NCBI GenBank assembly: GCA_046351475.1
Contig: JAXLYL010000026.1
Span: 1 to 64,000, forward strand
Source of the DNA: Polyangiaceae bacterium
GTDB taxonomy: Bacteria; Myxococcota_A; Polyangia; Polyangiales; Polyangiaceae
Direction of reading: 5' to 3'
Length of the DNA stretch: 64,000 bases
Positions 18,767-64,000 of this stretch are shown piece after piece; the first letter of the stretch is position 1; the number at the start of each line of letters is the position of its first letter. Below the pieces are notes generated by a model. The model saw nothing but the letters and a program-made list of their open reading frames with translations, was not told where the DNA came from and did not search any database. The position numbers and the translations under genes are program-made.

Positions 18767-19299
18767 GGCGCGAGCTCCCGTTGCAATCGATGGACGAGTT
18801 GGGACATGCGGGACTTGATGGTCCCCGTGGGGATCTCGAGGAGGCTCGCCATCTCCTCGTAGGAGAGGCCGGCCACGCGGAGGTGGTAGACGGCGGCGAG
18901 GGGCTTCGAGAGTCGACGGACGGCGTCCTCGAGGGCGCCCTCGAGCTCGCGACGTTCGAGGACGTGCTCCGCCGAGGGGCGCGGATCCGGATCGGACGGT
19001 TCGTCGTCGAGGACCTCGTCGCGCGCGGCCTTCTTCAGCCGCTTGCGTGCGAGGTTCTTCGCGCACGTGTAGAGGTAGGCCCGGAAGCCTCCGGCCTCGA
19101 ACCGGAGACCTTCCGCACGCAAGGTGGCCATGAACGCCTCGTGGAAGACGTCTTCCGCGTCGGCGCGGCTCCCTGTGACGGCGAGCACGAACCCGAAGAG
19201 GTTCCTCTCGTAGCGCGCGTACAGGCGATCGAACGACGTGACATCGCCCGCGCGGACGCGCTCGTAGAGGTCCTCGTCGGACTCGGTCCCCACCGCCAT
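18751..19299 (-). CDS. ECF (group IV) RNA polymerase sigma factor
   Basis: From the ATG at 19299 the product is MAVGTESDEDLYERVRAGDVTSFDRLYARYERNLFGFV...VFHEAFMA (sigma-70 region 2) and ...LAAVYHLRVAGLSYEEMASLLEIPTGTIKSRMSQL... (region 4 HTH). Confidence 0.85.
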   Translation of the reverse strand: MAVGTESDEDLYERVRAGDVTSFDRLYARYERNLFGFVLAVTGSRADAEDVFHEAFMATLRAEGLRFEAGGFRAYLYTCAKNLARKRLKKAARDEVLDDEPSDPDPRPSAEHVLERRELEGALEDAVRRLSKPLAAVYHLRVAGLSYEEMASLLEIPTGTIKSRMSQLVHRLQRELAPWIAP

Positions 19300-27422: not shown

Positions 27423-27773
27423 ATGGCCGACGGCACGTTCTCCCGACCCCGCACGTTCGACGACTACCTCCGCTCGTACCGGGACGATCACCAGCATCCG
27501 GTGAACCGGCTCTGCCACATGATCGGGGTGCCGATGATCGTGGCGTCGCTGCCGCTCATTCCGACGGTCCCCCCGGTGGGCGTCTCGCTCTTCGGCGTGG
27601 GGTGGGGGTTCCAGTTCGTCGGACATGCCTTCGAAGGAAAGAAGCCGTCCTTCGCGCGGGACCTCCGGTACCTCGCCATCGGTCCCGTGTGGGCCGCCAT
27701 CGAGTGGACGGAGCTCGTCACGGGCAAGAAGTTCTACGAGCTGCCCGAGACCGAGCCGAAGCCCACGTTCTGA
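27423..27773 (+). CDS. DUF962 (Mpo1-like) family small membrane protein
   Basis: The 116-aa product starts MADGTFSRPRTFDDYLRSYRDDHQHPVNRLCHMIGVPMIV... and carries ...GWGFQFVGHAFEGKKPSF... The conserved His residues and hydrophobic core are typical of DUF962. Confidence 0.6.
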   Translation: MADGTFSRPRTFDDYLRSYRDDHQHPVNRLCHMIGVPMIVASLPLIPTVPPVGVSLFGVGWGFQFVGHAFEGKKPSFARDLRYLAIGPVWAAIEWTELVTGKKFYELPETEPKPTF

Positions 27774-30009: not shown

Positions 30010-31306
30010 CGACCGGAGTCTTCGCCACGGCGCCGTCGTCGTGGGAATCGACACGGAAGGGCGACACGTCCACGCGGACGCGTGTCCCGCCGTGCGTGGG
30101 CCCCGTCGCGTCGCCTTTCGCCTCCGAGGTCGCTTCGTCGACGAAGGTCGCGTCCCGGACGCCGAGCGCCTCGGCGCGCGCCTTTCGGTAGGCCTGGAGG
30201 AGACGGTGTTCGTCGGCGCCGCGCATCAACTTCGACACGGCGAAGACGACGAACAAGGACACGAACATGATGGCCATGGACTGGGCGCCCCGGACGAACG
30301 GCCAGCCGAGGGACCACACGATCCACAGGATCGGAGGAATGGGATTGAATCGCATGCCGACGGCGCGACGGAAGCGCTTCAGCTCGCGACGCGTGGGAAG
30401 CTCCGCGAACACGAACGTGTCCGGAGACGCACGCCGTTCGCTCCGAACGTCCCGCCCGCGCCGTCGATCGCGCTTCCCCGGGGACGCGCGCGACGTTCCT
30501 CGCGACGTCGCGACGGCTTCCCGCAGATCCCGGGGCCGGTCGTCGGGGTTCGGGGAGAGCATGGCTGCGAGGAGGCGTCGCAGGGACTGCGGGACGCGGG
30601 GCCCGAGCGCCCGTTCGACGTCGAGTGCGAGGCCGGAGTGAGGCAGATTCTCGGGCTCTTCGCGGGTGAGGAGCGCGAGGACCGTGGCTCCCGCTCCGTA
30701 GAGATCGGTGGCCGGCATGGCGCGGCCTTGGAACTGTTCGGGCGCCATGTACCCGAAGGTTCCGACGACCGTGCTCCCACCTTCGGGCCGGAGGCGATCG
30801 CGCACCGAACCGAAGTCGACCAGCGCGAACGAGCCGTCGGGGCGACGGACGACGTTCGCGGGTTTCACGTCGCGGTGGACGACCGGTGGCGATCGACCGT
30901 GGAGCGTCGCGAAGACGTCGGCGAAGGTCGCCAGGAGGGCCCAGGCGTCGTCCGGCGTGAAAGGCGCACCGCGGGCCTTCCAGGCGCGGAGGTCCTCGCC
31001 GTCGATCTTTTCCATGACCAACCAGAGCGCGCCGTCCTCCTCGAAGTGCTCGCGGTAGGCCGGCAACGAGGGATGGGCGAGGCTCGCGAGCACCCGGGTC
31101 TCCCGTTCGGCGAGTTCGACGTCCTTCCACCGACTCGCCGTGCGGAGGACGAAGCACTTCATGGCGACGAGACTGCCGTCCCTGTGATCGGCGGCCTCGT
31201 AGGTCGTGCCCTGGCTTCCCTCGCCGAGGACGCGGAGGAGCGAATAGCGCCCGTCGCGCACGCGCCGCGGAAGTTCCCGTTCGGTCGGGAGGGGGGTGCC
31301 CGGCAC
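29981..31306 (-). CDS. Ser/Thr protein kinase with a C-terminal double-TM region
   Basis: The GTG at 31306 is preceded by AAGGAGG. The kinase domain reads ...YSLLRVLGEGSQGTTYEA...LVAMKCF...HRDVKPANVV...DFGS...GTFGYMAPEQ... The C-terminus has two hydrophobic helices (IPPILWIVWSLGWPFV and MAIMFVSLFVVFAVS). Its 3' end overlaps ArsA2 convergently. Confidence 0.8.
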   Translation of the reverse strand: MPGTPLPTERELPRRVRDGRYSLLRVLGEGSQGTTYEAADHRDGSLVAMKCFVLRTASRWKDVELAERETRVLASLAHPSLPAYREHFEEDGALWLVMEKIDGEDLRAWKARGAPFTPDDAWALLATFADVFATLHGRSPPVVHRDVKPANVVRRPDGSFALVDFGSVRDRLRPEGGSTVVGTFGYMAPEQFQGRAMPATDLYGAGATVLALLTREEPENLPHSGLALDVERALGPRVPQSLRRLLAAMLSPNPDDRPRDLREAVATSRGTSRASPGKRDRRRGRDVRSERRASPDTFVFAELPTRRELKRFRRAVGMRFNPIPPILWIVWSLGWPFVRGAQSMAIMFVSLFVVFAVSKLMRGADEHRLLQAYRKARAEALGVRDATFVDEATSEAKGDATGPTHGGTRVRVDVSPFRVDSHDDGAVAKTPVVSRAPNRSR

Positions 31307-32252: not shown

Positions 32253-35200
32253 GTGGCGTATCCTGGAGCGATGGACCGCCGTGACGGAACGGGAAACGCG
32301 CGGTTCGCGTGGCCGACCCCCGCGCGTTCGGTGGCCCTCGCGGGAGAGATCGGGGACTGGCAGAACCACGCACCGTTCCGCCGTCAGGACGACGGGACGT
32401 TCGCGCTCGACGTGCGCGTGACCCCGGGCGTCCACGCGTACAAGTTCGTGGTCGACGGCGAATGGGTCCTCGACGGCTCGAATCCTCGGACGCGCAACCG
32501 CGCCGGCGACGTCGAGAACGTCCTCGTGGTGGAGGGAACGGAGGAACCGCTCCTCCACGCCGCGGCGCCTCCGTTCCTCGTGGAGGACGATCGGGGTGGC
32601 GTCCTTCTTCGCGTGGCGTTGCGTCGCGAGGCGGTTCCTTGTCCTTCGTCCTTCGTCGTCGTGTGGCGCGAAGGGGCCGACCTCGGAGAGACGCGCACTC
32701 CCCTCCTCCGCGTCGACGTCGAAGGCGAACACGATCTCTACGAAGTGCATCTGCCCACGTCGGCGGCGCGCCTCCTGTACCACTTCGAGCTCGACGGCCG
32801 CTCCTTCGGACGTGCGACCGACGCGGAGGGCGCCCCGACGGTCGCGCCATCGAAGGAGACGGTCCCGTTCACCTTCGACCCGAAGGGCGTACGGGAACGC
32901 GCGCCGGACTTCTGGGGAGACGCGGTCGTCTACACGGTGTTCGTGGACAGGTTCCGGCCGGAGACGGACCTGGAGAGTTGGGGACGCGAAGCGTGGAGCG
33001 CCGACGAGTCCAAGCGGACCTTCGCGGAGGGCACCTCGAGGGACTCCGGAGATCCCTCGACGTGCTGGCCGATCTCGGCGTGAACGTGCTCCACCTGACG
33101 CCCGTCCACGAAGGTGCGAGCAACCACAGGTACGACTTCGTGGATCCGACGAAGGTGGACCCGGCGCTGGGAGGCGACGCCGCGTTCGCGCGTCTCGTCG
33201 AAGATGCGCACTCGCGGGACATGCGAATCTTGCTCGACTTCTCGTTCGTCCACGCCGGCGCCGGGTTTCCCCGTGCCGAGGACGTGATGCTCCACGGGCG
33301 TTCCTCCGAGTGGGCGGCGTGGTTCCTCTGGGACGACGAAGGAGCGCTGCGGCACTACGGCAAGCGGAAGGACGCGCCCCTCGTCGACCTGACCCATCCG
33401 GAGGTCGCCGACTGGGTCGTGTCCCTCGCCGAAGCGTGGGCGCGCCGTGGCGTCGACGGCTTCCGACTCGACATGGCCGCCGAAGTGCCGCTCGAGCTCG
33501 CGGAACGCGTGAGGACGACCTTGCGCCGCTGGCGGCCCGAGTCCGTGGTCCTCGGCGAGGTCGTTCCGGCGCACGCTCACCGGTGGACGACGGCCGGTGC
33601 CGTGGACGCCGCGACCGACTTCGGCTTCCACGGCGCGGTCACCGCGTGGCTCGCCGAGGGACGTACCGACGCCGCGGCCTTCGTCCGCACGTGGCGGAGC
33701 TCCGCGCGCCTCCGGGGAACTCCGGAGTCGGCGGCCGTACGGTTCTTGTCGACGCACGACCATGTCCGGTTCGAGAGCCTCGCGATGCGGAACGGTCGTA
33801 CGGATCGCGTACCCGTGGGACTCGTGCTCCTCGCGACGGTACCGGGAGTGCCCATGCTCCTCTACGGCGAGGAGACGGGCATGGGCCACGACGCACGCGA
33901 ACTCGCCCCCGAGAACGTCTGGGCGGACCGCGCACCCCGACCGTGGTCGGACGCGGTCCATGCGCGCCACGCGCTCCTCCGCTCCCTCTTCCGGCTGCGG
34001 AAAGAGCATCGCGCGCTCCGAGGCGGGTCGTTCGAGTTCGTGCACGACGGGGAGGACGTACTGGTCTACCGGAGGCGTGCGGGGCGCGACGTCGTCGACG
34101 TCGTGCTGCACGCGGGTGCGGGCACGCGCACGCTGTCTCTCGAGGACGAGACCTTCCCCAACGCACGGGTCGCCGTCGTGTCCGGGGACGCGACCTTCGA
34201 AGGCGGAAGCGCGACGCTCCGGGGTCCCGGGGCGCTGGTGCTCGTCCGCGACGACACGCGCGAGCGGGGGACGACACGTGTCCACCTCGTGCGCGCGAAC
34301 GAGGTGAGGAAAGATCGGGCCTTCGTCCACGGAGACGTGCGGCCCGCCGCCCTTCCCGTGCGTCTCGACTTCGCGGTGACGGAACGGTGCAATCTCCGGT
34401 GCGTCCACTGCATCACGAACGCCCCCGAACGGACCGCGAACGGAAGCGCACGCACGCTCTCGCGCGCGGTCCTCGACGCGCTCGCGCCCGATCTGGCGTT
34501 CGCGCGGTACTTCGGCTTCGTGCACGGCGGCGAATCGTTGACGGCCCCCGTGTTCTTCGACGTCCTCCGGACGATCCGGGAGGCGCGCGGCGCCGAGCCC
34601 ACCGTGGTGCACCTCCTGTCGAACGGCGTCCTCCTCCACGAGCGGAACCTGCATCGTCTCTTCGACGCCGGAGTGAATTCCCTCTCGGTGTCCCTCGACG
34701 GCGCGACCGCGGCCACGAACGACGTCCTCCGGGTGGGCGGCAAGCTCGAGGCGATCCTCGCGAACGTGGCAGCGGCCGTGCGCATCCGCGCCGAACGGAA
34801 CATCGACGTGCGTCTCGGCATCTCCACGGTCGTGATGCCCGCGAACGTGGACGAACTCCGGGAGCTCGTGGACCGTGCCGTGGACGTGGGTGTCGACTGG
34901 GTGAAGCTCGAGGAGCTCGTCCCGGTCAACGCGTTCTCGCGGAAGGCCCTTCCCGACTACGACGCGGCGAACGTGCGTTCGGCCATCCTACGGGCGGCGG
35001 AACACGGGCGAGCTCGCGGAATCCGCATGGTCGAACACGTCGGGGCACCGGACGTGTGGCGATGCCGTCTCGACGCGCGAACGGAAGCCTTCCTCGCCGA
35101 CGACGAATTCGCGAACCGGAGCTCCATCCACCCGTGCCGTGCCCGGTGGGACATCGCGTGCATCGAGCCGGACGGGGACGTGCGCATCGGGGACTTCTTC

Positions 35201-35341
35201 GGACGGGTCCTCGGCAACGTCCTGCACGCCCCCCTCGACGAACTTTGGCGTTCGTCCGTGGCGGCGGACGAGCGGAGGGCGAGTCAGGTCGGACGGCTGT
35301 GCGGCCCGACCGGTCCCGTCACGTGCGTTGACGGCGGATGA
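32253..35341 (+). CDS. Apparent three-domain protein: CBM48 (glycogen-binding) + GH13 alpha-amylase-family catalytic domain + radical-SAM/SPASM-like domain. The frame is interrupted by a 1-bp frameshift near 33045.
   Basis: The CBM48/E-set domain is FAWPTPARSVALAGEIGDWQNHAPF...HAYKFVVDGEWVLD. The GH13 region reads VFVDRFRPETD..., [frameshift], ...GGHLEGLRRSLDVLADLGVNVLHLTPV, with ...DMRILLDFSFVHAG..., ...GVDGFRLDMAAEVP... and ...VVLGEVV... Continuing in the same frame with no stop: ...VRLDFAVTERCNLRCVHCITN (CxxxCxxC radical-SAM cluster motif) and a C-terminal Cys-rich SPASM/twitch-like region (VWRCRLD...HPCRARWDIACIEPDGDVRIGDFFGRVLGNVLHAPLDELW...CGPTGPVTC). Confidence 0.6.
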
Positions 35342-47147: not shown

Positions 47148-48218
47148 ATGGAACGAACCCCGCTCCGATTCCTGGTGGTGGGCGCGGGCGGCGTCGGCGG
47201 CGTGCTGGCGGCGAGGCTCGTGGAGTGCGGGTACGAGGTCGTGACGTGGACGCGGAGCGCCGTCCTCCGGGAAATGATCCGGACCCGGGGCTACGAGCTC
47301 CGTACCGGTACGGGGGATCGCCTGGTGCGCGGCTTCGCCACGACGGATCCGCCCTCGGGCACGTTCGACTTCGTCCTCCTCACGACCCAACCCAAGGACG
47401 TCGAGGAGGCGGCGCGGCGCGCGATGCCCTTCAAGGATCCGGACGGGGCGCTCGTCTGCCTCCAGAACGGCCTCTGCGAGGAACGGGTCGCGCGCATCGC
47501 GTCGGCGGACGACACGTTCGGAGCCGTCGTCGGCTGGGGCGCGTCCTCCCCCGCCCCCGGAGTCTTCGTGGAGACCGCTCGGGGCGGGTTCACGATCGGT
47601 CGCGTCGACGGACGCCGGGATCCCCGCCTGTTCGACCTCGCCTCCGCGCTCGGCCGCGTGGGCGAGACCGAGATCACGGAGAACCTGGCCGGCAAACGCT
47701 GGAGCAAGCTCGCCCTCAACTGCGCCATCTCGACGATCGGCACCCTCGGAGGTGACCGCCTCGGTACCCTCATGCGTCATCGCTTCGTCCGCCGGCTCGC
47801 CCTCGACACCATGAGCGAGGTCGTTAAGGTCGCGCGCGCCGAAGGCGTCACGCTCGAAAAGGTGGCCGGCACGCTCGATCTCGACTGGATCTCCCTCACC
47901 CACGAGGAGCGTCGTGCGAAGCTCGCCGCCAGTCTGGGACTGAAACATGCCCTGCTCCTCGCGGTGGGCGTGCGTTTCCGGAGGCTCCGGAGCTCCATGC
48001 TCGCGGGCCTCGAACGCGGAGAGGCACCGTCGGTGGATTTCCTCAACGGCGAGGTCGTGACGCGTGCCGCACGTCACGGCGTGGACGTCGCGGTGAACGA
48101 ACGCCTCCGCGAGAGCGTCTGGGCCGTCTCACGAGGCGAAGCGACGCCGTCGGTGGCGTTGGTCCGCGCGATCTACGACGCGACGGGCCCGCGGGGTTCG
48201 GTCACACGCGCAGCGTGA
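47148..48218 (+). CDS. 2-dehydropantoate 2-reductase family oxidoreductase (ApbA/PanE-like)
   Basis: The N-terminus MERTPLRFLVVGAGGVGGVLAARL carries the Rossmann GxGxxG. The C-terminal ApbA_C-like helical domain follows. Confidence 0.8.
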   Translation: MERTPLRFLVVGAGGVGGVLAARLVECGYEVVTWTRSAVLREMIRTRGYELRTGTGDRLVRGFATTDPPSGTFDFVLLTTQPKDVEEAARRAMPFKDPDGALVCLQNGLCEERVARIASADDTFGAVVGWGASSPAPGVFVETARGGFTIGRVDGRRDPRLFDLASALGRVGETEITENLAGKRWSKLALNCAISTIGTLGGDRLGTLMRHRFVRRLALDTMSEVVKVARAEGVTLEKVAGTLDLDWISLTHEERRAKLAASLGLKHALLLAVGVRFRRLRSSMLAGLERGEAPSVDFLNGEVVTRAARHGVDVAVNERLRESVWAVSRGEATPSVALVRAIYDATGPRGSVTRAA

Positions 48219-49137
48219 GCGCGCGGGGCAGGAGCTCCACGGTCAACGGAAGGCTGCCGAGCGGTTCACCGTCGACGTCGAGCAGGAGCGGCTCGGCGTT
48301 CGGCACCGGGGCGTTGGTGACGGTGATCTTCCGCGCGCGGAAGTGGGTCACGTCGGGATTGGAGAGGTGCTTGCCTTCGTAGATGGTCTGCGAATGGCGC
48401 ACGAACGCGATCTTCGACGGGGCGTCCATGGAGACCACGTCGAAGAACCCGTCGTCGATGGAAGCTCGCGGAGCGATGTGCATACCGGCACCGAAGAACG
48501 AGCCGTTGCAGATGGCCAACATGTACGTCCAGAGCTCGCGGGTCTCGGTGCCTCCTTCGCCTTCGGAGGTGCACACGACCTTCGTCCGCGTGGACGCGAC
48601 GAGGGCCTTCACCGAAGCCGCGAGGTAGGTCGCCTTCCCTCCGAATCGTCCCGACGAACCGGCGACGAACTTGTCGACGAGGCCACCCATGCCGGCGGAG
48701 AGCACGTTCACGAACGTCCGCTCGGCGGGGCGCCCGTCCGACACGAACGTGGCCCGGCCGACGTCGACCTTCCGCGACGTCCCGCGGGCGATGGCATCGA
48801 GGTAGCGATCGAGCCGGTGCTCGAGACCTACCGATTTGCGGAAGTCGCCTCCGGTCCCCTGCCCGACGATGCCGAGAGCGGTGTCCGGTTTCGACGAGCG
48901 GAGGATGCCCGCGGCCACCTCGCTGATGGTCCCGTCCCCGCCGACGGCGACGACCAGGGCGCGCCCTTCGTCGGCTGCCCGATGGGCGAGCGTCACGGCG
49001 TGGGCGCGTTCCTCGGTGCGCACGAGATCCACGGGACCGAGCGCGCGTTCGATGGCAGCCACGAGATCGGACTCGACGCGGCCCGTCTTGCCACCCGCGG
49101 AGCGGGGATTGAGGACGACGACGGGCTTGGTGCTCAC
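48202..49137 (-). CDS. Diacylglycerol-kinase-family lipid kinase (DAGK_cat; YegS/BmrU-like)
   Basis: The GTG start overlaps the upstream TGA in a GTGA motif. The product carries ...PVVVLNPRSAGGKTG... and ...LVVAVGGDGTISEVAAG... (the GGDG motif). Confidence 0.75.
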   Translation of the reverse strand: MSTKPVVVLNPRSAGGKTGRVESDLVAAIERALGPVDLVRTEERAHAVTLAHRAADEGRALVVAVGGDGTISEVAAGILRSSKPDTALGIVGQGTGGDFRKSVGLEHRLDRYLDAIARGTSRKVDVGRATFVSDGRPAERTFVNVLSAGMGGLVDKFVAGSSGRFGGKATYLAASVKALVASTRTKVVCTSEGEGGTETRELWTYMLAICNGSFFGAGMHIAPRASIDDGFFDVVSMDAPSKIAFVRHSQTIYEGKHLSNPDVTHFRARKITVTNAPVPNAEPLLLDVDGEPLGSLPLTVELLPRALTLRV

Positions 49138-50228
49138 GGCGTGTCGGACGAGCGGAACGTGTCGGCCGCGGACTTCGCCTTCGCCGCCATTTCGGTCACG
49201 AGATCGGCGAAGGGCGTCGCTTCGTCGCGCGACTCGGGCCACACGACGCCGCGGTCGCGCAGATCGGCGACGGTGTCGGTGAGCGTCTCCATGGGATCGC
49301 GCGAGACGAAACCGAGCTCGTTCTCGGCGCGGGATGCGTCGAGGTACCAATAGTACTGGGCCATGTCGAGGCTCTGGGCGTCGACCGGGAGCCGCGCTCC
49401 GAGACTCTTCGCGAGCTTCTCGAAGAGCGAAACGCCGACCTTGGCCACCTCCGGCGCACGCGGAACGGGCAGCCACGGCGCGGAGACTCCCGAGACCCGC
49501 TCGAGCTTCGCGAAGAACTCGCGGAGCGTGAGATTCACGGCGCCGACGAGGTACGTCGCGCCCGGCTTTCCCTTCTCCATGGCGAGGAGGAGCGCTTGCG
49601 CCGCGTCGCGCACGTCGACGAACGAGATGCCGCCCGGCGGTACGGCGGGGATCTTCTTCTCGAGGAACAGACGCACGTCCTCCGTGGAGGAGCCACGGAG
49701 ATCTCCGGGACCGAGCAGGAGCGTCGGATTCACGGACACCACGTCGAACGCCGGGCCGTTCATCGCGAGGGCTGCCTGCTCGGCGAAGTATTTGGCGCGG
49801 TAGTACGGCCAACGGTTGAGGATGCCGATGGGCCTCTCGTCGTCCTCGGTGGCGATACGATCGGGGTCCTCGCTGACGGCGATGGTGCCGCTGGAGGACA
49901 CGAACACCGCACGACGGACACCCGCGTCACGGGCGGCCTCGAGCACGGTCTTCGTCCCGCGGACGTGCACCGTGTACATCTCTTCGGCGTCGGCCGCGCT
50001 CCGCGACACGCGCCCGGCGGCATGGAAGACGCCGTCCTTTCCCTTGGCGACGGCCTTCACCGCCGCGGCGTCGGTGATGTCGCCCCGGACGACCTTCACG
50101 CCCGCGGGGAACGACCGCGCGTGGGCCTCGCGCGCGAACGCCGTGACATCGTGTCCGGCTTCGACCAAGGCGAGGACGAGGTGGGTTCCGAGAAATCCGG
50201 TCGCGCCGGTGACGAGGTACTTGGCCAC
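49134..50228 (-). CDS. NAD-dependent epimerase/dehydratase (extended SDR; 3beta-HSD-like)
   Basis: The N-terminus is MAKYLVTGATGFLGTHLVLALVEAGHDV. The active-site YxxxK is in PYYRAK. The product is 364 aa. Confidence 0.8.
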   Translation of the reverse strand: MAKYLVTGATGFLGTHLVLALVEAGHDVTAFAREAHARSFPAGVKVVRGDITDAAAVKAVAKGKDGVFHAAGRVSRSAADAEEMYTVHVRGTKTVLEAARDAGVRRAVFVSSSGTIAVSEDPDRIATEDDERPIGILNRWPYYRAKYFAEQAALAMNGPAFDVVSVNPTLLLGPGDLRGSSTEDVRLFLEKKIPAVPPGGISFVDVRDAAQALLLAMEKGKPGATYLVGAVNLTLREFFAKLERVSGVSAPWLPVPRAPEVAKVGVSLFEKLAKSLGARLPVDAQSLDMAQYYWYLDASRAENELGFVSRDPMETLTDTVADLRDRGVVWPESRDEATPFADLVTEMAAKAKSAADTFRSSDTP

Positions 50229-50237
50229 GGGAACTCC

Positions 50238-53200
50238 TCAGGAGAGAGCGAACACTTCTTGGAACGTGTAGAGGAGCGAAGGGTCGTTCGACTTGATCGC
50301 ACCCGAGAGGAACTCCGCGGGACTCGGCACGTACGCCTCACGGACGATCTTGGTGAAGATTTCGGGGCTCGTCTTGAGGACGCAGTCGGCCTGGAAACCT
50401 TCCGGTTTACCGGGCGTGATCTGGCAGCCGCTCTTGTCGACCTTCACGGTCCACTTCGCGTCGGCGTCTCCGCCGAGCGTGAAATAGAACGAGACGGGCT
50501 TGTCGACCTTGTCGGCGCGGAACTTCTTGCCGAGTTCGTCGAACACGCGGACGAGCGGGTTCGCCTTCTCGTCGAGTTCCGACGAGCCGACGCCCACCTT
50601 CGAGAGGTCGAGCAGACCTCCGTCGCGGAGCGCGAGGACGGCTTGCCGCGCGATGCGTGCGACCTCGCGGGCAGCGTCCGAATTCGACATGCCTTGCGTG
50701 AGGCGACGCAGATCGGCGACGGCCAAGGGAAGACCGATGCGCGCCACGATCTCGCGCTTGGTCGGCAGGATGGAGCCCTTCGGCATCGCGCCGTGGGTCC
50801 CGCCGAGGTAGATCGGCAGGATGTCGACGCCATTCGCGAGGGCGAGCTGGCCGATCAGGGGCTTGAACTCGGTGACCTCGCCGTTCGGGCTCCGCGTGCC
50901 TTCGGGGAAGATGAGGACCGTCTTGCCGCTCCCGATGACTTCGCCCGCCTGACGTAGCGTGCCGCGGAGACCCGCATTGCGATCGATGGCCTGGAGGTTC
51001 GAGAAGTTCTCGAAGAACGTCTTCCGGACGCCGCCCTCGAAGAAGTAGTCCTGGGCGGCGAGCGAGACGATCTCCTCCCCGTAGGTCCCGAGGGCGTGTC
51101 GCACGAAGCCCATGTCGAGGTGGCTCGCGTGGTTCGAGACGACGATGGTGTTGCGGTTGTGCGGGATGTGGGCGCTGCCGAAAACCCGCGACTTCATGCC
51201 GGTGCCGTAGAAGACGTCCTGCAGGCGGCCGATCATCTTCTTGCCGAAGTCCTGCACGGCGGGAGGCACGTCGAACGCGACGGGCGCCGAGCCTTCGATG
51301 GACTTCGTGCGCGAAGGCGCCTTCGAGCGCGGAGCGTGCACCAGGGCCTCGACCTCCGCGACCGTTCGGCAAGCGGCGAGTTGGTCGTGATCGACCGCGC
51401 CGCCCTTCGACTCGAGGATCTCGTGGAGTTCCGTGAGGAGGAGCGAGTCGAAGCCGAGGTCCGCCTTGAGTGTCATCTCCGGCCGCACCTCGCCCAGGGG
51501 GAGGTTCTTGAGGACGGAGATGGCGACGCGGACGTTGGTGGTTCCGGGCGCCGCCTCGAGCGGACGCGTGCTGCCGACGAGATTCCGCTCGATGGTGGCC
51601 TTCACTTCGCCGCGCTTCACCTTGCGGGTGGAGGTGCGGGGGAGCGCGCTGTCCTGGAGCTGTACGACGGCGGGCTGCTCGCCGTAGGGCAACTTCGCGA
51701 GGGCCGATCGGAGGCTCTTCATCGCGCGCTCCATGCGCTCCGCGCGGTCCACGCCGTCGTCCTTCTTCGGCACGCCCAGACAGGCGACCTTCTCGGAACC
51801 GCCGCGGGTCGTGATGCCGACGATGGCGAACTCTTCGATGTGTTCGACCGCACCGACGCGGCGCTCGACGTCGTCGGGGTAGACGTTCTCGCCGGTGGTG
51901 GTGACGATCACGTCCTTGGAACGACCGACGATCTGGAGTCGACCGGCCTTGTCGAATTTGCCCAGGTCACCCGTGTGGAGCCACCCGTCGGCGTCCACGA
52001 CACCTTCGGTCGCATCGGAGCCGGTGTAACCGGCCATGACGTTCGGGCCCTTGGCGACGATCTCGCCGACACCGCGATCGTCCGGGTCCTGGATCTTCAC
52101 CGTGACGCCCGGGATCGCTTTGCCGACCTGCCCGGCCTTCGACTTCGGCGACGGGTTCGACACCGTGAGCACCGGCGCGGCCTCGGTGAGACCGTAGCCT
52201 TCGGTGAGGTGCAGACCGAGACCCGCGAACGTGTCGAACGTCTCGGCGGGGAGCGAGGCGCCGCCCGAGATCAGGTACTTCACCTTGCCGCCGAGCGCGG
52301 CGTGGACGGGTCCGAAGAGGAGGCGTCCGACGTCGACACCGAGCGTCTTGCCGAGGAAGCGGTTCGCTTCGGTGCCGAGCGAGACGGCCATCTCGAACGC
52401 GGGGCCTTTCCCCTTGATGTCGGTGGTGATGCGTCGCTCGAGCATCTGCCAGAGCGCGGGCACGCCCACCATCGCCGTCGGACTCGCCTTCTTGAGCGCG
52501 TGCGAGAGGCGATCGCCCGTGAGCTCGTCGAGGTAGACGACGCGGGCCCCGCGCGTGAGCGGCAGCAGCATGCCGCACGTGAACTCGAACGTGTGGTGGA
52601 GAGGGAGCACGGAGAGCACGGCCTGTCCCGGCTTCAGCGGGAAGAGCGGCGCGAGCGACGCGACGAGCGCCGTGAAGTTCTTGTGCGTGAGCATCACGCC
52701 CTTGGGCGTGCCGGTCGTGCCGCTCGTGTAGATGAGGCTCGCGACGTCGTCGTCGTCCACTTCGACGAGCGGGGGCGAGAGCGGCGCTTCGTCGGTGAGG
52801 GACCGGAGCCCGAGGACGGTGAGCTTCCGATGGGTCGCGCGCACGTGTCCGCCGGACTTCTTCTCGACGTCGGCGTCCCAGACGGCGGCGAACGCTTCGG
52901 ACTCGCGCACGATCGTCGCGAGCACTTCGGGTTCGAAATTCGGGTCGACGGGGACGACGGTGCCGCCCGCGACGAGGATGCCGAAGTAGGCGATGACCCA
53001 GTCGGGGTGGTTGTGGCCGGCGAGGACGACGCGGTGCCCCTTCTGCACGCCCGCCTGGGCGAGTCGTGCCGCCACGGCGTCGGCCCGCTTCTCGAACTCG
53101 CGGTAGGTGATCCGCGAGAGTCCGTCGGTCTCGACGCGCTGGAGGCACGTCGACATCTCGTGACGACCCGCCATCTGGCGCATCATCGTGACGAGGGTCT

Positions 53201-54854
53201 CGTGGGCGCGGAGCGGCTGCGTCTCCTTCTTCAGGCGACGATCCATCTCCGGCATGATGAGCTTCTCGAGCGTCGGCATCTGGACGTCGCGCATCCAGTC
53301 GGCCCAGTCGAGGCTCTCGGGAGCCCAGGGGAGCTTCGACTTGTCCTCGTCGGAGAGGCGGGCGTAGGCGGCGCGCGTGTTGGAGCAGTCGAACGGACCG
53401 TTCTCGAGCACCGTGAACGGGGCGAAGAGGTGGAAGATCTCGCCGATCTTGGTCTCGCGATAGGCGACCGCGTCGAGGGACTTCGCGGCGGAAGAGAACA
53501 TCTCCGCGGTCGGTCCCACGGCCGCGGAGCGGAGAGCCTTCGCGAGGTTCTTGGAGGCCTTCGCGATCGCGGGAGGTCCGATGCGATCGAACGTCTCGAG
53601 CGTCACGCTCTGGGGCTCGACGTGCGCCTGGTAGAAGTTGAGGAACGGGTTGCCGCCCTTCTTCTGGTAGTAGCGGCGCTTGTAGAGGCCGATGAGTTCG
53701 GCGAAGCGCGCGACGGTGCACGGGTTCACGTCGGCCGCGCCGAACTGGTAGACGGCCTTGGGGGTGCCCTCGAGCAGTTCCGCGAGCGCCATGATCATGC
53801 CGGCCGCGACGTAGTCGCTCGGAATGAGATCGAGCGAGACCTCGGCCGCCGGGATGTTCACCTGGCCCTTCATGGCCATGTAGAGGATCGGCGCGGACGT
53901 GCTGACGCCCTCGTTCCATCCTTCGAACGGGAACGCGACCGTGGTCTCGCAGCAGGCGGGGCGCGCGATCGTGAAGCGGAGGCCGCTCTTCGCGACGAGC
54001 TGCTCACCGATGCTCTTGGTGTACGTGTAGATGTTCGGCCAGCCCCAGTGCGTCGCGCGGTCCTTGCCGACCTCGACGAGCATGTCGCTCACGTACTTGC
54101 GCTTCACCTTCGCGTACTCGGACTCGTACGCCGGCCCCTCCGAAGGCTCACCTCGATCGCGGAGGTTCTTGAGGGCCTTCTCCCGGAACTCGCTCTTGCG
54201 GAACGCGTCCTCGGAGCGGTGCTTCGCCTGGGCGACGAGCTCGAGGCATTCGGCGACCTCGCGCTCGGGATCCCACGCGTCCCGTCCAAGCTCGTCGCAC
54301 CGCGGGTACGGGTACTCGCCCGGCGGCACTTCGAAGATGGGGCCCTTCCGGCGACCGGCGACGTAACAGGTGCTCGTGTGGAAGAGCGGTGTGTCGCCGA
54401 GCGTCTTCGCGAGATCGACGACGTTCTTGGTGCCGAACGCGTTCGCGTCGAGTGCTTCGTCCAAGGGCGGATTGAAGTCGACGACGCCGGCGACGTTCAC
54501 GACGGCGTCGAGGGTGCCCTTGAGATCCTTGAGGAGACCGGGTTCGATGCCGCAGTTCGGACGACCGACGTCCCCGTCGATGGGGACGATCTTGCTCTTC
54601 AGGAACTCTTCGAACTGCGGCCCCGGGTACTTCTCGCGCAGGGGCTCGAAGCAGCGGGACGTGGCGATGTCCTTCCAGAAGCGCTCCTCGGTGGTCTGCT
54701 TCTTCGACGACCGGACCAGGAGGAAGATCTTGCCGATCGACGGGTAGCGATCGAGCAGCATGGCGAGCATCACCTTCCCGAGGAAGCCGGTGCCTCCGAG
54801 GAAGACGAAGCGCGTGCCGTCGAGCAAGCCTTGGACGTCGAGCGGTTCCTTCAT
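50238..54854 (-). CDS. Multidomain lipid-biosynthesis enzyme, ElbD-like ether-lipid type: fatty-acyl reductase (NAD_binding_4), acyl-AMP/CoA ligase, ACP, 1-acyl-sn-glycerol-3-phosphate acyltransferase (AGPAT) and SCP2-like domains
   Basis: From the ATG at 54854 the product is MKEPLDVQGLLDGTRFVFLGGTGFLGKVM... The FAR/'male-sterility' region reads ...TSTCYVAGRRKG...YTYTKSIGEQL. The AMP-binding domain carries LIYTSGTTGTPKGVMLTH and ...HTGDLGKFDKAGRLQIVGRSKD. The PP-binding DSL motif is TLKADLGFDSLLLTEL. The AGPAT H(x)4D motif is VVSNHASHLDMGF, with ...IFPEGTRS. The C-terminal SCP2-like region is ...YFTLGGDADAKWTVKVDKSGC...LSGAIKSNDPSLLYTFQEVF. The product is 1538 aa. Confidence 0.85.
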   Translation of the reverse strand: MKEPLDVQGLLDGTRFVFLGGTGFLGKVMLAMLLDRYPSIGKIFLLVRSSKKQTTEERFWKDIATSRCFEPLREKYPGPQFEEFLKSKIVPIDGDVGRPNCGIEPGLLKDLKGTLDAVVNVAGVVDFNPPLDEALDANAFGTKNVVDLAKTLGDTPLFHTSTCYVAGRRKGPIFEVPPGEYPYPRCDELGRDAWDPEREVAECLELVAQAKHRSEDAFRKSEFREKALKNLRDRGEPSEGPAYESEYAKVKRKYVSDMLVEVGKDRATHWGWPNIYTYTKSIGEQLVAKSGLRFTIARPACCETTVAFPFEGWNEGVSTSAPILYMAMKGQVNIPAAEVSLDLIPSDYVAAGMIMALAELLEGTPKAVYQFGAADVNPCTVARFAELIGLYKRRYYQKKGGNPFLNFYQAHVEPQSVTLETFDRIGPPAIAKASKNLAKALRSAAVGPTAEMFSSAAKSLDAVAYRETKIGEIFHLFAPFTVLENGPFDCSNTRAAYARLSDEDKSKLPWAPESLDWADWMRDVQMPTLEKLIMPEMDRRLKKETQPLRAHETLVTMMRQMAGRHEMSTCLQRVETDGLSRITYREFEKRADAVAARLAQAGVQKGHRVVLAGHNHPDWVIAYFGILVAGGTVVPVDPNFEPEVLATIVRESEAFAAVWDADVEKKSGGHVRATHRKLTVLGLRSLTDEAPLSPPLVEVDDDDVASLIYTSGTTGTPKGVMLTHKNFTALVASLAPLFPLKPGQAVLSVLPLHHTFEFTCGMLLPLTRGARVVYLDELTGDRLSHALKKASPTAMVGVPALWQMLERRITTDIKGKGPAFEMAVSLGTEANRFLGKTLGVDVGRLLFGPVHAALGGKVKYLISGGASLPAETFDTFAGLGLHLTEGYGLTEAAPVLTVSNPSPKSKAGQVGKAIPGVTVKIQDPDDRGVGEIVAKGPNVMAGYTGSDATEGVVDADGWLHTGDLGKFDKAGRLQIVGRSKDVIVTTTGENVYPDDVERRVGAVEHIEEFAIVGITTRGGSEKVACLGVPKKDDGVDRAERMERAMKSLRSALAKLPYGEQPAVVQLQDSALPRTSTRKVKRGEVKATIERNLVGSTRPLEAAPGTTNVRVAISVLKNLPLGEVRPEMTLKADLGFDSLLLTELHEILESKGGAVDHDQLAACRTVAEVEALVHAPRSKAPSRTKSIEGSAPVAFDVPPAVQDFGKKMIGRLQDVFYGTGMKSRVFGSAHIPHNRNTIVVSNHASHLDMGFVRHALGTYGEEIVSLAAQDYFFEGGVRKTFFENFSNLQAIDRNAGLRGTLRQAGEVIGSGKTVLIFPEGTRSPNGEVTEFKPLIGQLALANGVDILPIYLGGTHGAMPKGSILPTKREIVARIGLPLAVADLRRLTQGMSNSDAAREVARIARQAVLALRDGGLLDLSKVGVGSSELDEKANPLVRVFDELGKKFRADKVDKPVSFYFTLGGDADAKWTVKVDKSGCQITPGKPEGFQADCVLKTSPEIFTKIVREAYVPSPAEFLSGAIKSNDPSLLYTFQEVFALS

Positions 54855-54874
54855 GGTCGTGCCGTGCCTCCCGC

Positions 54875-56455
54875 TCAGACCGTCACGTCCGCCATGCAGA
54901 TCGGCGGCATGTGGAGCATGGTGATTTCGGGCGAACGCGGCCCCGTGTCCTTCGCCATGTCGAGCGCCTCGCCCATGGATCGGGCGGTCTCCCATCCGAG
55001 GATCTTCGGGATGTATTCGTTGTCCGCACCGACGACGATCACGCGTCCCAAGTGCTGACGACCGGCCTCGCCCCAGTACCACATGAAAAAGGGATGGGCC
55101 GGGTGGTACGCGTGGCCCGTGCGGTACATCTGGATGTAGGCCGGGTTCGACGCGAACTTCTTCTCGTAACGCTTGTGAAGTTCGACGGCGTCGCGCGTCT
55201 CGGGAAGCAGGTTGTGGACGAACTCGATGTACGGCGCGTGGTGTTCGCGATCGAACTTGTCCGTGCACGGATGGGTGATGATCATCGTGCCGCCCTTCTT
55301 CACGAGGGGCGCGTTCCGGTAGCAGTTGAAGAGGTACCCCTGCGCCATGACTTGAACGAGCAGCGGGTTCAGGAACGAGTTCACGTTGTACGGGCTGATG
55401 TACGGGATGCCCGTGACCATGATGTCGGCCTGGCCCTTGATGGGCACGAGGTACTGCTCGAACGACTTCGCGATCGTGTGCTTGTGGACCGCTTCCGTCT
55501 CGCCGGCGAACACGCCCGTGACGCCGAACGGCGACGGCACGCGCTGGAACACGGCCTCGCGCGCGGGTTGCGGCACCTTGTCGAGCGTGAAGCGGAGGGC
55601 CTTGAGCGCCGTCTTCTCGGCGGACGTGAGGTCGTCCTCGTTCTTGTGGAGGAACTCGAGCGGGCGATCGAACATGCGGTTGTTGATCGTCGTCTCGATG
55701 GTGAAGACGTTGAGGTTCTTGTTCGTGACGCGGCCCATGCGCTCGACGGAGTCCGCGAGGGCGCTCTTCGAGGGGTCCATGTACGAGTGGCACGCCCGCA
55801 TGGTCTTCGGGTTGTGGTGCGCCATCAGGCTCTTGTAGCCGCAGAGACCGACCGTGACCGACTTGTGCCCCCCGTCCATCGGGACGAGATTCAAGTTCAC
55901 GTAGATGACGAGATCCGCCTCGACCGCCTTGCGATTGAGTTCGACGACTTCGCCCTGGTCGGTCGTGCCGACCATCTTCATCCCTTCGGGATCTTCCGCG
56001 TCGTGGTTGTAGAGGCGGTGCGGGTAGTACGCGTCGAAGATCTTCGAACCGACGATGTGCCGAATCTCCGGCCCCGTCATGCGGCGGTGCACGGACGTCG
56101 CGATGATCATCTCCACGTCGTCGACGCCGTGGTTCGCGAAGAGTTCGAGGAGGATGGTGAGGACGCGTTCGCGGATGTCGGGCGCACGCATGGGCGGGAG
56201 AGGGAGCGAGATGTCGTCGATGGCGATGACGACCTTCATGCCCGGACGGAGTTTCGAGTGCAGCGGGTCCGCGTTGTACGGGTGGTTCAGGGCGTAACGG
56301 ATCGCGGCGTCGACGTCGCGGAGCGGCTCGAGCGGAGGGCGCGGATAGACGACGCGCGTTCCGGCGGGCATGTCGACTTCGACGAGGCGGTCACCCGAAA
56401 AGATGGTGCGCGGGGCACTCTTGCGATCGAGGGTGACGACGAGCGGATGACTCAT
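54875..56455 (-). CDS. LarA-like (DUF2088, lactate-racemase family) protein
   Basis: The 526-aa product carries ...MKVVIAIDDISLPLP... and ...VPMDGGHKSV...SLMAHHNP... These resemble the DUF2088 core, including the GG-x-K lysine and His cluster that tether the Ni-pincer cofactor in LarA. The assignment is by motif resemblance only. Confidence 0.5.
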   Translation of the reverse strand: MSHPLVVTLDRKSAPRTIFSGDRLVEVDMPAGTRVVYPRPPLEPLRDVDAAIRYALNHPYNADPLHSKLRPGMKVVIAIDDISLPLPPMRAPDIRERVLTILLELFANHGVDDVEMIIATSVHRRMTGPEIRHIVGSKIFDAYYPHRLYNHDAEDPEGMKMVGTTDQGEVVELNRKAVEADLVIYVNLNLVPMDGGHKSVTVGLCGYKSLMAHHNPKTMRACHSYMDPSKSALADSVERMGRVTNKNLNVFTIETTINNRMFDRPLEFLHKNEDDLTSAEKTALKALRFTLDKVPQPAREAVFQRVPSPFGVTGVFAGETEAVHKHTIAKSFEQYLVPIKGQADIMVTGIPYISPYNVNSFLNPLLVQVMAQGYLFNCYRNAPLVKKGGTMIITHPCTDKFDREHHAPYIEFVHNLLPETRDAVELHKRYEKKFASNPAYIQMYRTGHAYHPAHPFFMWYWGEAGRQHLGRVIVVGADNEYIPKILGWETARSMGEALDMAKDTGPRSPEITMLHMPPICMADVTV

Positions 56456-56519
56456 GAACGGGCTCCAAGGGTTCGGACGGAGGCGCGGCGAGGAAGGCAG
56501 CGCCTTGGAGGATGCGGCG

Positions 56520-57242
56520 CTACGCGTGGACGGCGGGGCCGGATCGCTCCTTCAAGTTCAGGATCGGCCAGCCGTACGTGTTCGCGAGCCGTGCGAGGCG
56601 CGCGTCCGGGTTCACGGCGGCGGGGTAACCGACGACGGAGAGCATGGGCACGTCGGAGTAGCTGTCCGAGTAGGCGAAACACTGCGCGAGGTCGTGGCCG
56701 TTCGCGCGGGCGTGCTCGCGAATCAGGCGCGCCTTTTCGGGTCCCGCGACGACGGGCCGAAGGAGGCGTCCGGTGGCGTGGCCGTCCTTGATCTCGAGGC
56801 GGTTGGCGATGATGCCCGTCGCGCCGATGTGGGCCGCGAGCCGCTCCATCAAGAAGTCGAGCGCACCGGAGACGAGGACCACGTCCTGCCCTTCCTTGCG
56901 GCAACGGGACACGAGGGCCTTCGCCGACGGGAACAGCGCGGGCTTGATGACCTTGTCGAACGCTTCGTCCGCCAGACCGTGGAGGCGGTCCTTCGACGTG
57001 CCCTCGTAGGAACTGAAGAGGAGCTCGTTGAAGACGCGCCGATCCTGCATCTCCGCGAGGGCCATGCGCGGCGCACCGAACAACGCGCGCGCGACTTTCG
57101 CGACGCTCTGGACGGGGCTCTGCTGGTTCAGCAGGTAGAAGACGGTCGGATGAACGAGGTTCGTGCGGACGAGGGTGCCGTCCACGTCGAAGTAACTGGC
57201 TGCCACGCGGGGGGTATTCGTATGCCCAGCCCCGTGTGTCAA
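56520..57242 (-). CDS. HAD-superfamily hydrolase (subfamily IB, phosphoserine-phosphatase-like)
   Basis: The HAD motif I is ...ASYFDVDGTLV... Motif II is ...VVLVSGALDF... Motif IV is ...YSDSYSDVPML... Confidence 0.7.
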   Translation of the reverse strand: MTHGAGHTNTPRVAASYFDVDGTLVRTNLVHPTVFYLLNQQSPVQSVAKVARALFGAPRMALAEMQDRRVFNELLFSSYEGTSKDRLHGLADEAFDKVIKPALFPSAKALVSRCRKEGQDVVLVSGALDFLMERLAAHIGATGIIANRLEIKDGHATGRLLRPVVAGPEKARLIREHARANGHDLAQCFAYSDSYSDVPMLSVVGYPAAVNPDARLARLANTYGWPILNLKERSGPAVHA

Positions 57243-57374
57243 CCTTTGGGGGCACGTTCACGCGCGCAAAGCGGCGGAAAATGGCTCTCCGCGGCCCGCG
57301 TTACACGGTGCGCATCGGGGTGCGCACCCGGACGCCTTCCGGGCGTCTCCAGGTGCGGCGTGCGGAAGTTCGGC

Positions 57375-58211
57375 TCAGGGGACGACCCAGATCGCGCCCT
57401 GCATGCCCGGGTGGAAGTTTCCGCACACGAAGCCGTAGGTCCCCGCGGTCGGGAACGTGGCCATCTGGGACGTACCGGTGTTCGCGAGCCCACCGATGGG
57501 GTTGTTCGCGTCGCCCGGATCCTGGGGAGGGACGATGACCGGGTGGATGTTGAAGCCGACCTGGGCGGTCTCGAGCGTGAACAGGACGCTCTGACCCGCC
57601 TTGACCTTCATGCAACGGGCCGCGGTCGTCCCGACGGTGAAGCCCCACACGACGGTGCGTTCCGCGTTCGCCGCCGTGCGATCGACGTAGTCCGCCGCGT
57701 CGCAGTTCTGGATCTCGAGGGCCGCGTTCTCGCCGCCGGAGTCGCTCGCGTCCGACCCCGCGTCGGCCGCGGCGTCGGAGCCGGCGTCCGTCGCGCCCGC
57801 GTCGGAGGCATCGGAGCCGGCGTCGGTCGCGCCCGAATCCTGGGTCGTTCCAGAATCGCCCGCGTCGTTCCCGGCATCACGGCCGGCGTCACCGCCGCCG
57901 TCGCGACCGCCGTCACCGCCGCCATCGCCACCTCCGTCGCGGCCACCGTCCGTCGCGGAACCGTCGCGCGCGGCATCGGCCGCGGCGTCCGTCGTGACGG
58001 GCGCGTCGGAACGCGCGTCGACCGACGAGGAGCCATCGGTGGTCGTGCTCGAATCGGAGCCCGCGGACGAATCGGCCGCGGACGCGTCCCCGAGGTCGAC
58101 GCCGCTGCTGCCGCTGCAATGGGCGAGGCCGACGGAGGCGGCGAGCACGAGCGCGACCGGCGCGGTGGACGACAGTGTGACGATGAGCGTTCGGCGCGTC
58201 GAGATGTTCAT
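57375..58211 (-). CDS. Secreted cupredoxin (type-1 blue copper protein) with a long acidic low-complexity linker
   Basis: From the ATG at 58211 the product is MNISTRRTLIVTLSSTAPVALVLAASVGLAHC. A roughly 130-aa D/G/S/A-rich linker follows. The C-terminal cupredoxin domain has copper ligands in ...IHPVIV... and ...GTYGFVCGNFHPGMQGAIWV (Cys-x2-His-x2-Met). Confidence 0.75.
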   Translation of the reverse strand: MNISTRRTLIVTLSSTAPVALVLAASVGLAHCSGSSGVDLGDASAADSSAGSDSSTTTDGSSSVDARSDAPVTTDAAADAARDGSATDGGRDGGGDGGGDGGRDGGGDAGRDAGNDAGDSGTTQDSGATDAGSDASDAGATDAGSDAAADAGSDASDSGGENAALEIQNCDAADYVDRTAANAERTVVWGFTVGTTAARCMKVKAGQSVLFTLETAQVGFNIHPVIVPPQDPGDANNPIGGLANTGTSQMATFPTAGTYGFVCGNFHPGMQGAIWVVP

Positions 58212-63486: not shown

Positions 63487-64000
63487 ATGACCCAGCTACG
63501 AGGGGGTGCCCGCGCGCCCCGTTCCCCGTTCCCTCTCCTCCCCCTCCGCACGGGAGTCCTCTTCCCGTCGTCCGTGATCACGCTCCCGGTCGGACGGGAA
63601 CGTTCCATCGCGCTCCTCTCGTCCTTGGACGCGGGCGCCATCATCGGTGTGGTCGCCCAGAAGCAATCGAGCACGGTCGAGCCGACGTTCGAGGACATGC
63701 ACGGCACCGGTACCTACGCGCGGGTCGATCGCGTGGTGCGCGTGAGCGAACGGGAGCTCCGGGTCGTGCTCACGGGCCTGGGTCGTTTCCGCCTCGACGG
63801 TCTCGAGGCCTCCGAACCGTACTTCCTCGCGCGCGCGACCCCGCTCGAGGAGGAAGGGGAGGACGATGGCGAGAGCGAACGTCTCGCCCGCGCGCTCGTC
63901 GCCGAGTTCAAGAGTGCCACCAAGGACGGCGGTCGTTCCTTCGGAGACCTCGACGGCGACGACCTGGAGCCCGCCATCGTGGCGGACCGCGTCGCGGCGG
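63487..64000 (+). CDS. lon: ATP-dependent Lon protease, N-terminal (LON substrate-binding) domain; 3' end runs off the window
   Basis: The ATG is at 63487. The product starts MTQLRGG...PLLPLRTGVLFPSSVITLPVGRERSIALL..., the start of a LonA N-domain. The frame is open to the window end. Confidence 0.7.
   Translation, partial: MTQLRGGARAPRSPFPLLPLRTGVLFPSSVITLPVGRERSIALLSSLDAGAIIGVVAQKQSSTVEPTFEDMHGTGTYARVDRVVRVSERELRVVLTGLGRFRLDGLEASEPYFLARATPLEEEGEDDGESERLARALVAEFKSATKDGGRSFGDLDGDDLEPAIVADRVAA

Follow-up and report, generated by a model that had tools for sequence, protein, structure and literature searches.

The five co-directional genes at 48202-57242, on the minus strand of a 64,000-nucleotide stretch of Polyangiaceae bacterium DNA (assembly GCA_046351475.1, contig JAXLYL010000026.1, positions 1 to 64,000; the whole stretch is called the window here), very probably represent the ether-lipid operon elbB-elbC-elbD-elbE as it occurs in an uncultured myxobacterium of the Polyangiaceae, with two additions, an SCP2-fold tail on ElbD and a translationally coupled gene for a lipid kinase. 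In operon order, the genes encode a predicted HAD phosphatase, a LarA-like protein, a 1538-residue multidomain enzyme, a predicted SDR protein and a predicted lipid kinase. An earlier reading of the same DNA, made from the sequence alone and referred to below as the original prediction, proposed a pathway for an ether or fatty-alcohol-derived glycerolipid, and the gene-for-gene sequence match to elbB-E supports this general proposal. It also took the flanking genes, above all the LarA-like one, to be unlike any known set; this part does not hold, as the HAD, LarA-like and SDR genes correspond to elbB, elbC and elbE in reciprocal BLAST.

The elb operon of Myxococcus xanthus consists of elbA (SDR), elbB (HAD), elbC (of unknown function), elbD and elbE (SDR) (PMC9131029). 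These genes carry the tags MXAN_1531 to MXAN_1527 (PMC13012113), which makes elbC MXAN_1529, and the cluster is MIBiG entry BGC0000871. We reached this locus through the MXAN_1529 sequence in Dataset S2 of Desguin 2020, then the exact protein and finally the gene table, which gives the order SDR (elbA, 326 residues), HAD (elbB, 221), Lar_N (elbC, 536), ElbD (1470) and SDR (elbE, 342). By reciprocal BLAST, four genes of the window pair with elbB-E and share their order and strand, with alignments over essentially full lengths. The HAD protein is 44% identical to ElbB over its full length and the LarA-like protein is 54% identical to ElbC; the multidomain enzyme shares 42% identity with ElbD across residues 5-1420 (1449 columns), which bears out the resemblance to ElbD seen in the original prediction, and the SDR protein is 46% identical to ElbE versus 28% to ElbA. 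The two loci share the succession of HAD, LarA-like, FAR-ACS-ACP-AGPAT and SDR genes on a single strand, joined by short or overlapping junctions. They differ in that the window has no elbA, its ElbD is extended at the C-terminus by ~105 residues of SCP2 fold, and a YegS-type kinase gene is coupled after elbE. Synteny with the Myxococcus elb locus, which the original prediction had named as a way to overturn its claim of novelty, is therefore found for most of the operon: four genes are collinear with elbB-E, and the kinase and the SCP2 domain are not in M. xanthus. As to elbA, the M. xanthus protein matches the elbE-like gene alone in the window (BLAST), and elbA is not a defining function of an elb operon, because the ether lipids of M. 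xanthus were unaffected by insertions in elbA (PMC9131029).

Functional knowledge of the system comes from M. xanthus, where elbD is required for the 1-O-alkyl and vinyl ether forms of phosphatidylethanolamine (Lorenzen et al. 2014, via PMC9131029). The iso-C15 aldehyde also depends on elbD, and inactivation of elbE lowers the ether lipids (PMC9131029). Most steps of the ElbD route are still uncharacterised and the formation of the ether bond is unsolved (PMC9131029).

At the G+C content of the window (~69%), long spurious open reading frames (ORFs) are common, and genes were called from third-position GC, ORF reading and a codon-usage gene call. All three give five consecutive, co-directional minus-strand genes, and the layout described in the original prediction is reproduced down to its junctions. 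The HAD gene (elbB homologue) was first called at 56520-57242; it is followed by the LarA-like gene (elbC homologue, 54875-56455, 526 residues), the gene of the multidomain enzyme (elbD homologue, 50238-54854), the extended SDR gene (elbE homologue, 49134-50228, 364 residues) and the YegS/BmrU lipid kinase gene (48202-49137, 311 residues). The gaps from HAD to LarA-like, to multidomain and to SDR genes measure 64, 20 and 9 nucleotides, and the SDR and kinase genes meet in a 4-nucleotide GTGA overlap, in which the GTG start of the kinase overlaps the SDR stop codon. A Shine-Dalgarno sequence, GGGAGG, lies 13 nucleotides upstream of the multidomain gene. For the HAD gene, a GTG start at 57206 (228 residues) is more likely than the TTG at 57242, because the TTG forms the first half of a perfect TTGACA hexamer and because homologues leave the first ~14 residues of the TTG-started version uncovered. 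Upstream of the operon (57237-57360, minus strand), a GC hairpin, GACGCC-cggaa-GGCGTC, follows the stop of the preceding gene and is in turn followed by the TTGACA. From this reading of the sequence the region is a probable operon boundary and promoter region; the call is only suggestive, because a consensus scan gave no full sigma-70 promoter, and neither the sigma-70 nor the terminator scans gave anything above chance.

The multidomain enzyme is built, in Pfam order, from NAD_binding_4 (residues 20-351), a weak Sterile match, AMP-binding (567-943), PP-binding (1117-1171) and Acyltransferase (1223-1350). These correspond to a fatty-acyl reductase, an acyl-adenylating ligase, a carrier protein and an AGPAT-type acyltransferase, with a C-terminal SCP2-fold domain in approximately the last 105 residues (50238-50560, minus strand). 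All catalytic motifs are intact (GGTGFLG, YTYTK, TSGTTGTPKG, GYGLTE, GFDSL, NHASHLD and FPEGTR), and the nearest relatives among the matches listed are ~60-64% identical. An identical protein, P0001, is recorded at NCBI for a Polyangiaceae metagenome-assembled genome. The SCP2 profile PF02036 scores 15.3 bits on the window protein, under the Pfam cut-off of 21.3. Nevertheless, phmmer aligns the tail with the SCP-2L domain of human MFE-2 (1IKT) at 5.5e-5, and 17 of 18 homologous ElbD tails match PF02036. The AlphaFold model of the tail is ordered over residues 31-135, with a predicted local distance difference test score (pLDDT) of ~74-85, and the 40-odd best Foldseek matches to this model in the PDB are all SCP2-fold proteins or domains. 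The SCP2 domain is thus marginal at the sequence level and recognised at the level of the predicted fold. The domain assignments of the original prediction are all upheld by Pfam and NCBIfam for the operon, with SCP2 at this fold level. The tail occurs in the ElbD proteins of Polyangiales and Bradymonadales and is absent from M. xanthus and from a Kofleriaceae-like group, one member of which (L064) has an SCP2-less ElbD. Among the hits listed by a literature search, no publication pairs ElbD with SCP2.

The three smaller enzymes are assigned by family profiles. The HAD protein matches PF12710 at 7e-37 and TIGR01490 at 131 bits (cut-off 98.3), with its DVDGT motif intact, and is by these profiles a HAD-IB phosphatase and the elbB homologue. 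The SDR protein matches Epimerase (PF01370) at 8e-38 and carries the motifs GATGFLG and YYRAK; it is classed as the elbE homologue, an extended SDR of the NAD-dependent epimerase/dehydratase family. The last gene product contains DAGK_cat and YegS_C (Pfam) and a GGDGT motif and scores 126.1 bits against TIGR00147 (cut-off 118.65), which assigns it to the YegS/Rv2252/BmrU family of diacylglycerol (DAG)-type lipid kinases.

The original prediction had called the LarA-like protein a DUF2088 protein, and Lar_N/DUF2088 (PF09861) indeed matches at 2.7e-38 and 131.7 bits; NCBIfam NF052592 (LarAH14/15/16) covers residues 6-524 with 833.6 bits against a cut-off of 740. A phmmer alignment to LarA of L. 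plantarum (6C1W) maps D81 to Asp72, H123 to the catalytic His108, K198 to Lys184, which tethers the cofactor, and H214 to the nickel ligand His200. The position of the second catalytic histidine, His174, is taken by N189, and that of Arg75 by Leu84. Across 145 homologues from several phyla, drawn from three independent sets (41, 76 and 28), D81, H123, K198 and H214 are invariant, and 141 of the 145 have Asn at the second-histidine position, where Dataset S2 of Desguin shows a gap for Groups 14 and 15. The equivalents of LarA Arg75, Gln295 and Lys298 are not conserved in these two groups. The AlphaFold model (pLDDT 86) finds its best PDB match in 9q3k, with template modelling (TM) scores of 0.77/0.84, and the best PDB matches by both sequence (1.3e-32) and structure are single-histidine LarA-like enzymes. 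Among the compared loci, the LarA-like protein is also the best conserved of the operon, at 70-85% identity versus ~60% for ElbD. On this basis, the gene is assigned as an elbC of the Desguin Group 15 type, encoding a putative nickel-pincer enzyme with a single catalytic histidine. We do not call the predicted protein a racemase, because Asn replaces the second catalytic histidine.

This assignment places the window protein beside two sets of described LarA relatives. MXAN_1529 and sce8293 of Sorangium cellulosum are listed in Dataset S2 as LarAH Group 15, ‘unknown function’ (PMC7583248), and the group also holds Anaeromyxobacter, Corallococcus, Stigmatella and Haliangium proteins (PMC7583248 Dataset S2). 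Groups 15 (myxobacteria) and 14 (actinobacteria) of Desguin 2020 share with the window protein the LarA fold, the Lys tether, the nickel-binding His and the first catalytic His; relative to LarA itself, the window protein is ~100 residues longer, has Asn for the second His and is changed at the Arg75, Gln295 and Lys298 positions. The Group 17-type proteins of Blautia wexlerae (9q3j) and Streptococcus plurextorum (9q2u/9q3k) have the same Asn for the second His and, in the holo form, a covalent nickel-pincer; they differ in being only ~20% identical and in occurring in carbohydrate-gene contexts, versus the lipid operon here. In the Protein Sci 2025 paper, 9q3k is a holo enzyme with the covalent cofactor and the same His-to-Asn change, the B. 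wexlerae protein came out apo after co-expression with the cofactor-synthesis enzymes, and Groups 14, 15 and 17 are described as uncharacterised. An identity as D-gluconate 2-epimerase was considered and rejected: the ‘LarAH15’ of a 2024 JBC paper is a Phytophthora protein of the GntE branch with a GntE-like pocket, whereas Group 15 of 2020 lacks the second catalytic His, and we infer that the two labels belong to different numbering schemes.

The genomic company of this LarA clade extends well beyond myxobacteria. Metagenome contigs were scanned with an alignment of Groups 14 and 15, and 80 loci were kept on LarA similarity alone. The LarA proteins of these loci (L083-L162) resemble Group 14 and share 59-75% identity with Frankia LarAH14. 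An AGPAT-type gene lies directly downstream of the LarA gene in 63 of 64 cases; upstream of it stand a HAD gene (47/49) and a fatty-acyl reductase gene (34/36). One example is L154 (6390-16389), where reductase and HAD are fused; the LarA gene comes after a Zn alcohol dehydrogenase gene and is followed by genes for an acyltransferase of the HX4D type, a GMC oxidoreductase and an SDR. This actinobacterial-type module is devoid of the ligase and carrier domains and adds the Zn alcohol dehydrogenase and the GMC oxidoreductase. Because the neighbours recur even though the loci were chosen by LarA similarity only, the LarA clade is, on gene context, a core member of a reductase-HAD-LarA-acyltransferase module. 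No account of a set of reductase(-HAD), Zn alcohol dehydrogenase, LarA and HX4D acyltransferase was found in a literature search.

Closer to the window, the elb-type loci were compared in a set of 80 species representatives. The order HAD-LarAH-ElbD-SDR is frequent in Polyangiales and present in all seven Bradymonadales loci (7/7), and the full five-gene order including the kinase recurs in at least seven other genomes (L001, L007, L022, L023, L037, L038 and L041). In 16 of 24 Polyangiales loci the SDR gene is followed by a kinase gene, an arrangement that no Bradymonadales, Kofleriaceae-like or M. xanthus locus shows. The kinase and SCP2 features are common to dozens of genomes and are, from this distribution, lineage traits; of the features on which the original prediction based its claim of novelty, these two alone go beyond the elb cluster of M. 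xanthus, and both are common among Polyangiales genomes. Fifteen related loci (L012, L024-L026, L029, L037-L039, L044, L052, L054, L059, L067, L068 and L071) have an extra, divergent PlsC-type acyltransferase gene just upstream of the HAD gene on the opposite strand, of which the window holds no homologue. Outside the Myxococcota, elb-like clusters of sponge symbionts (Poribacteria, Acidobacteriota; PMC9426513, bioRxiv 10.64898/2026.06.23.733905) combine an ElbD homologue with ElbB and sometimes have the four core genes in the same order. DAG kinases and acyltransferases are among their neighbours (bioRxiv 10.64898/2026.06.23.733905), as is the kinase here. These clusters differ from the window in belonging to other phyla and in that many keep elbD and elbB only; the LarA-like gene is undiscussed there.

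A sequence of reactions can be proposed for the operon. The ligase domain of ElbD would adenylate a fatty acid and load it on the carrier domain, the N-terminal reductase would convert the thioester to an aldehyde or alcohol, the acyltransferase domain would acylate an acceptor of the glycerol-phosphate type, and the SCP2 domain may hold the hydrophobic intermediate. ElbC, with a nickel-pincer tethered to Lys198 and with His123, would shuttle a hydride in a hidden-redox reaction, with a secondary alcohol on a lipid intermediate as its target rather than a free 2-hydroxy acid. ElbE could act as the ketoreductase and ElbB could dephosphorylate alkyl(acyl)glycerol phosphate, while the kinase would re-phosphorylate alkyl- or alkylacyl-glycerol and so control how much ether lipid ends up in neutral and how much in phospho form. 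The eukaryote-type pathway (FAR1, GNPAT, AGPS and alkyl-dihydroxyacetone-phosphate (DHAP) reductase; MXAN_1676-1674 in M. xanthus) offers a frame for this scheme, with the reductase, acyltransferase and SDR functions in common and, in M. xanthus, the same class of lipid. The window differs from it by a LarA-type protein in place of AGPS and by the fused ligase and carrier domains. No AGPS flavoenzyme or FAD-linked oxidase domain was found in the window genes scanned, though the genome may encode one elsewhere. By this analogy, which is suggestive only, the operon has counterparts of FAR1, GNPAT/AGPAT, alkyl-DHAP reductase and the phosphatase but not of AGPS, ElbC is without a mammalian counterpart, and ElbC may occupy the AGPS slot. 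In its most specific form, the proposal is that the LarA proteins of Groups 14 and 15 supply the nickel-pincer core catalyst for an AGPS-independent route to alkyl ether or reduced glycerolipids in bacteria, in which ElbC transiently oxidises the sn-2 hydroxyl of acyl-glycerol-phosphate, permits an acyl-for-alkyl exchange at C1 and returns the hydride; we advance it tentatively, as a possible but doubtful mechanism. The less specific expectation, that ElbC carries the cofactor and that ether-lipid output is normal only when it is present, has in our estimate roughly even prospects.

How far the locus departs from characterised systems, and what its product is, can be read in other ways. It is very improbable that the genes form a dedicated pathway not seen before, whose accessory set is unlike any characterised elb cluster and whose product is an unusual tailored glycerolipid: the kinase and the SCP2 tail are indeed missing from the M. 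xanthus operon, elbA is missing here and no ElbD-SCP2 publication was found among the listed hits, but the HAD, LarA-like and SDR proteins equal ElbB, ElbC and ElbE and follow the same order, each of the three myxobacterial suborders has clustered elbB-E genes (PMC9131029), the two extensions are seen in dozens of genomes, and earlier work reports DAG kinases next to elb-like clusters. A different view concerns the chemistry, namely that the reductase-HAD-LarA-acyltransferase module makes reduced lipids without an ether bond (for instance long-chain alkane-1,2-diol or fatty-alcohol-based ones), with the LarA-like protein setting or inverting the configuration of a 2-hydroxyacyl or 2-hydroxy-alkyl group and the ether phenotype of M. 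xanthus being specific to the ElbD fusion. The LarA relatives characterised so far act at C2 of 2-hydroxy acids, the actinobacterial-type module lacks ligase and carrier domains and adds Zn alcohol dehydrogenase and GMC oxidoreductase genes, and a gene for an Mpo1-like 2-hydroxy-fatty-acid dioxygenase lies in the window (27423-27773), though 20 kb off. However, M. xanthus genetics links elbD to alkyl ether lipids, and the loss of the Arg75, Gln295 and Lys298 equivalents together with the second His in Groups 14/15 argues against a free 2-hydroxy acid and against two-way racemisation, so that we regard a non-ether product as distinctly unlikely.

The remaining alternative bears on ElbC alone and would make it a cofactor-less, non-catalytic relic of LarA that serves ElbD as a scaffold or lipid-binding subunit, with no nickel chemistry. 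Several observations can be cited in its favour. The original prediction had stated that larB, larC and larE are absent from the window; none of their domains was found among 48 of the 49 predicted genes plus two extra ORFs (a truncated gene at 63487-63999 lay outside the scan), and none were found among the conserved neighbours of the 80 related loci; the second catalytic His is lost, LarAH14 is inactive in vitro, and 9q3j of B. wexlerae is apo in spite of its co-expression with the cofactor-synthesis enzymes. Against this, all 145 sequences keep the tethering Lys, the His that binds nickel, the counterpart of Asp72 and the first catalytic His, which is unexpected for a relic, ElbC is the most conserved protein of the operon, and the closest structure, 9q3k, binds the cofactor covalently with the very same His-to-Asn change. 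A relic therefore seems improbable to us. The identification of the locus as an elb operon with a catalytic ElbC has, for its part, to be set against a number of points. ElbD shares no more than 42% identity with the characterised protein, whose in vitro activity was demonstrated for the ligase and carrier domains and not for the reductase or the acyltransferase (PMC9131029). A presumed-polar elbB insertion in M. xanthus was partly rescued by elbD alone (PMC9131029), which speaks either against a strict requirement for ElbB and ElbC or for incomplete polarity of the insertion. Frankia LarAH14 was inactive on the 2-hydroxy acids tried. With respect to cofactor supply, the search for larB, larC and larE covers the 64-kb window and says nothing on the rest of the genome. 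Finally, the roles given to ElbB, ElbC, ElbE, the SCP2 domain and the kinase are derived from the families to which they belong and from filling slots by comparison with the mammalian pathway.

The operon is flanked by two genes of other kinds. Upstream, the gene at 57375-58211 (minus strand) encodes a secreted protein that is rich in Asp, Ser and Gly, has a cupredoxin-like motif at its C-terminus and matches no Pfam family; this gene is unrelated to elbA. At the other end, a gene of the ApbA/PanE ketopantoate-reductase family (47148-48218, plus strand) converges on the operon and overlaps the 3′ end of the kinase gene by 17 nucleotides. Of the related Polyangiales loci, 11 have this convergent neighbour too, and a functional tie to the operon, for example as a 2-ketoreductase, is possible.

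Elsewhere in the window, the small Mpo1-like protein at 27423-27773 (plus strand) belongs to PF06127, the 2-hydroxy-palmitic acid dioxygenase family. A 1010-residue ORF at 32309-35341 (plus strand) joins an AMPK1_CBM-like glycogen-binding N-terminus, an alpha-amylase (residues 241-527) and a radical SAM domain (690-856), and is an unusual fusion unless two genes have been merged; at the M. xanthus elb locus, alpha-amylase and isoamylase genes lie a few kb away. The 801-residue protein of 24759-27164 (minus strand) has a serine beta-lactamase-family domain fused to the N- and C-terminal domains of the exo-beta-N-acetylmuramidase NamZ. Ser/Thr protein kinases are encoded at 2-1141 and 29981-31306 (both minus strand), and at 18347-19299 (minus strand) an extracytoplasmic function (ECF) sigma factor gene is followed by a small gene without a Pfam match, which may encode an anti-sigma factor. 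The Ser/Thr kinases and the ECF sigma factor fit a myxobacterial genome.

The locus adds one elb operon, from an uncultured member of the Polyangiaceae, in which an SCP2-tailed ElbD and a coupled kinase are the norm of the clade. Its wider meaning lies in ElbC, which joins two orphans into one protein: the ‘ElbC, unknown function’ of the ether-lipid papers and the ‘LarAH Group 15, one catalytic histidine’ of the nickel-pincer papers. Database annotation already labels MXAN_1529 as LarA-like. A literature search found no publication that connects ElbC, ether lipids or plasmalogens with DUF2088, lactate racemase or a nickel-pincer, and because no publication found there joins both fields, it seems that neither the equation of ElbC with LarAH Group 15 nor the close association of this protein with lipid genes has been discussed previously. 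If the proposed mechanism were true, one redox-neutral enzyme would replace both AGPS and alkyl-DHAP reductase, aerobic bacterial ether-lipid synthesis would be nickel-dependent, and the AGPS-independent route would be spread over Myxococcota and the lineages with Group 14 LarA proteins (actinobacteria in Desguin’s dataset). Since genes of this LarA clade stand almost without exception beside reductase, HAD and acyltransferase genes, even in distant lineages, the role of ElbC can be addressed by direct experiment.

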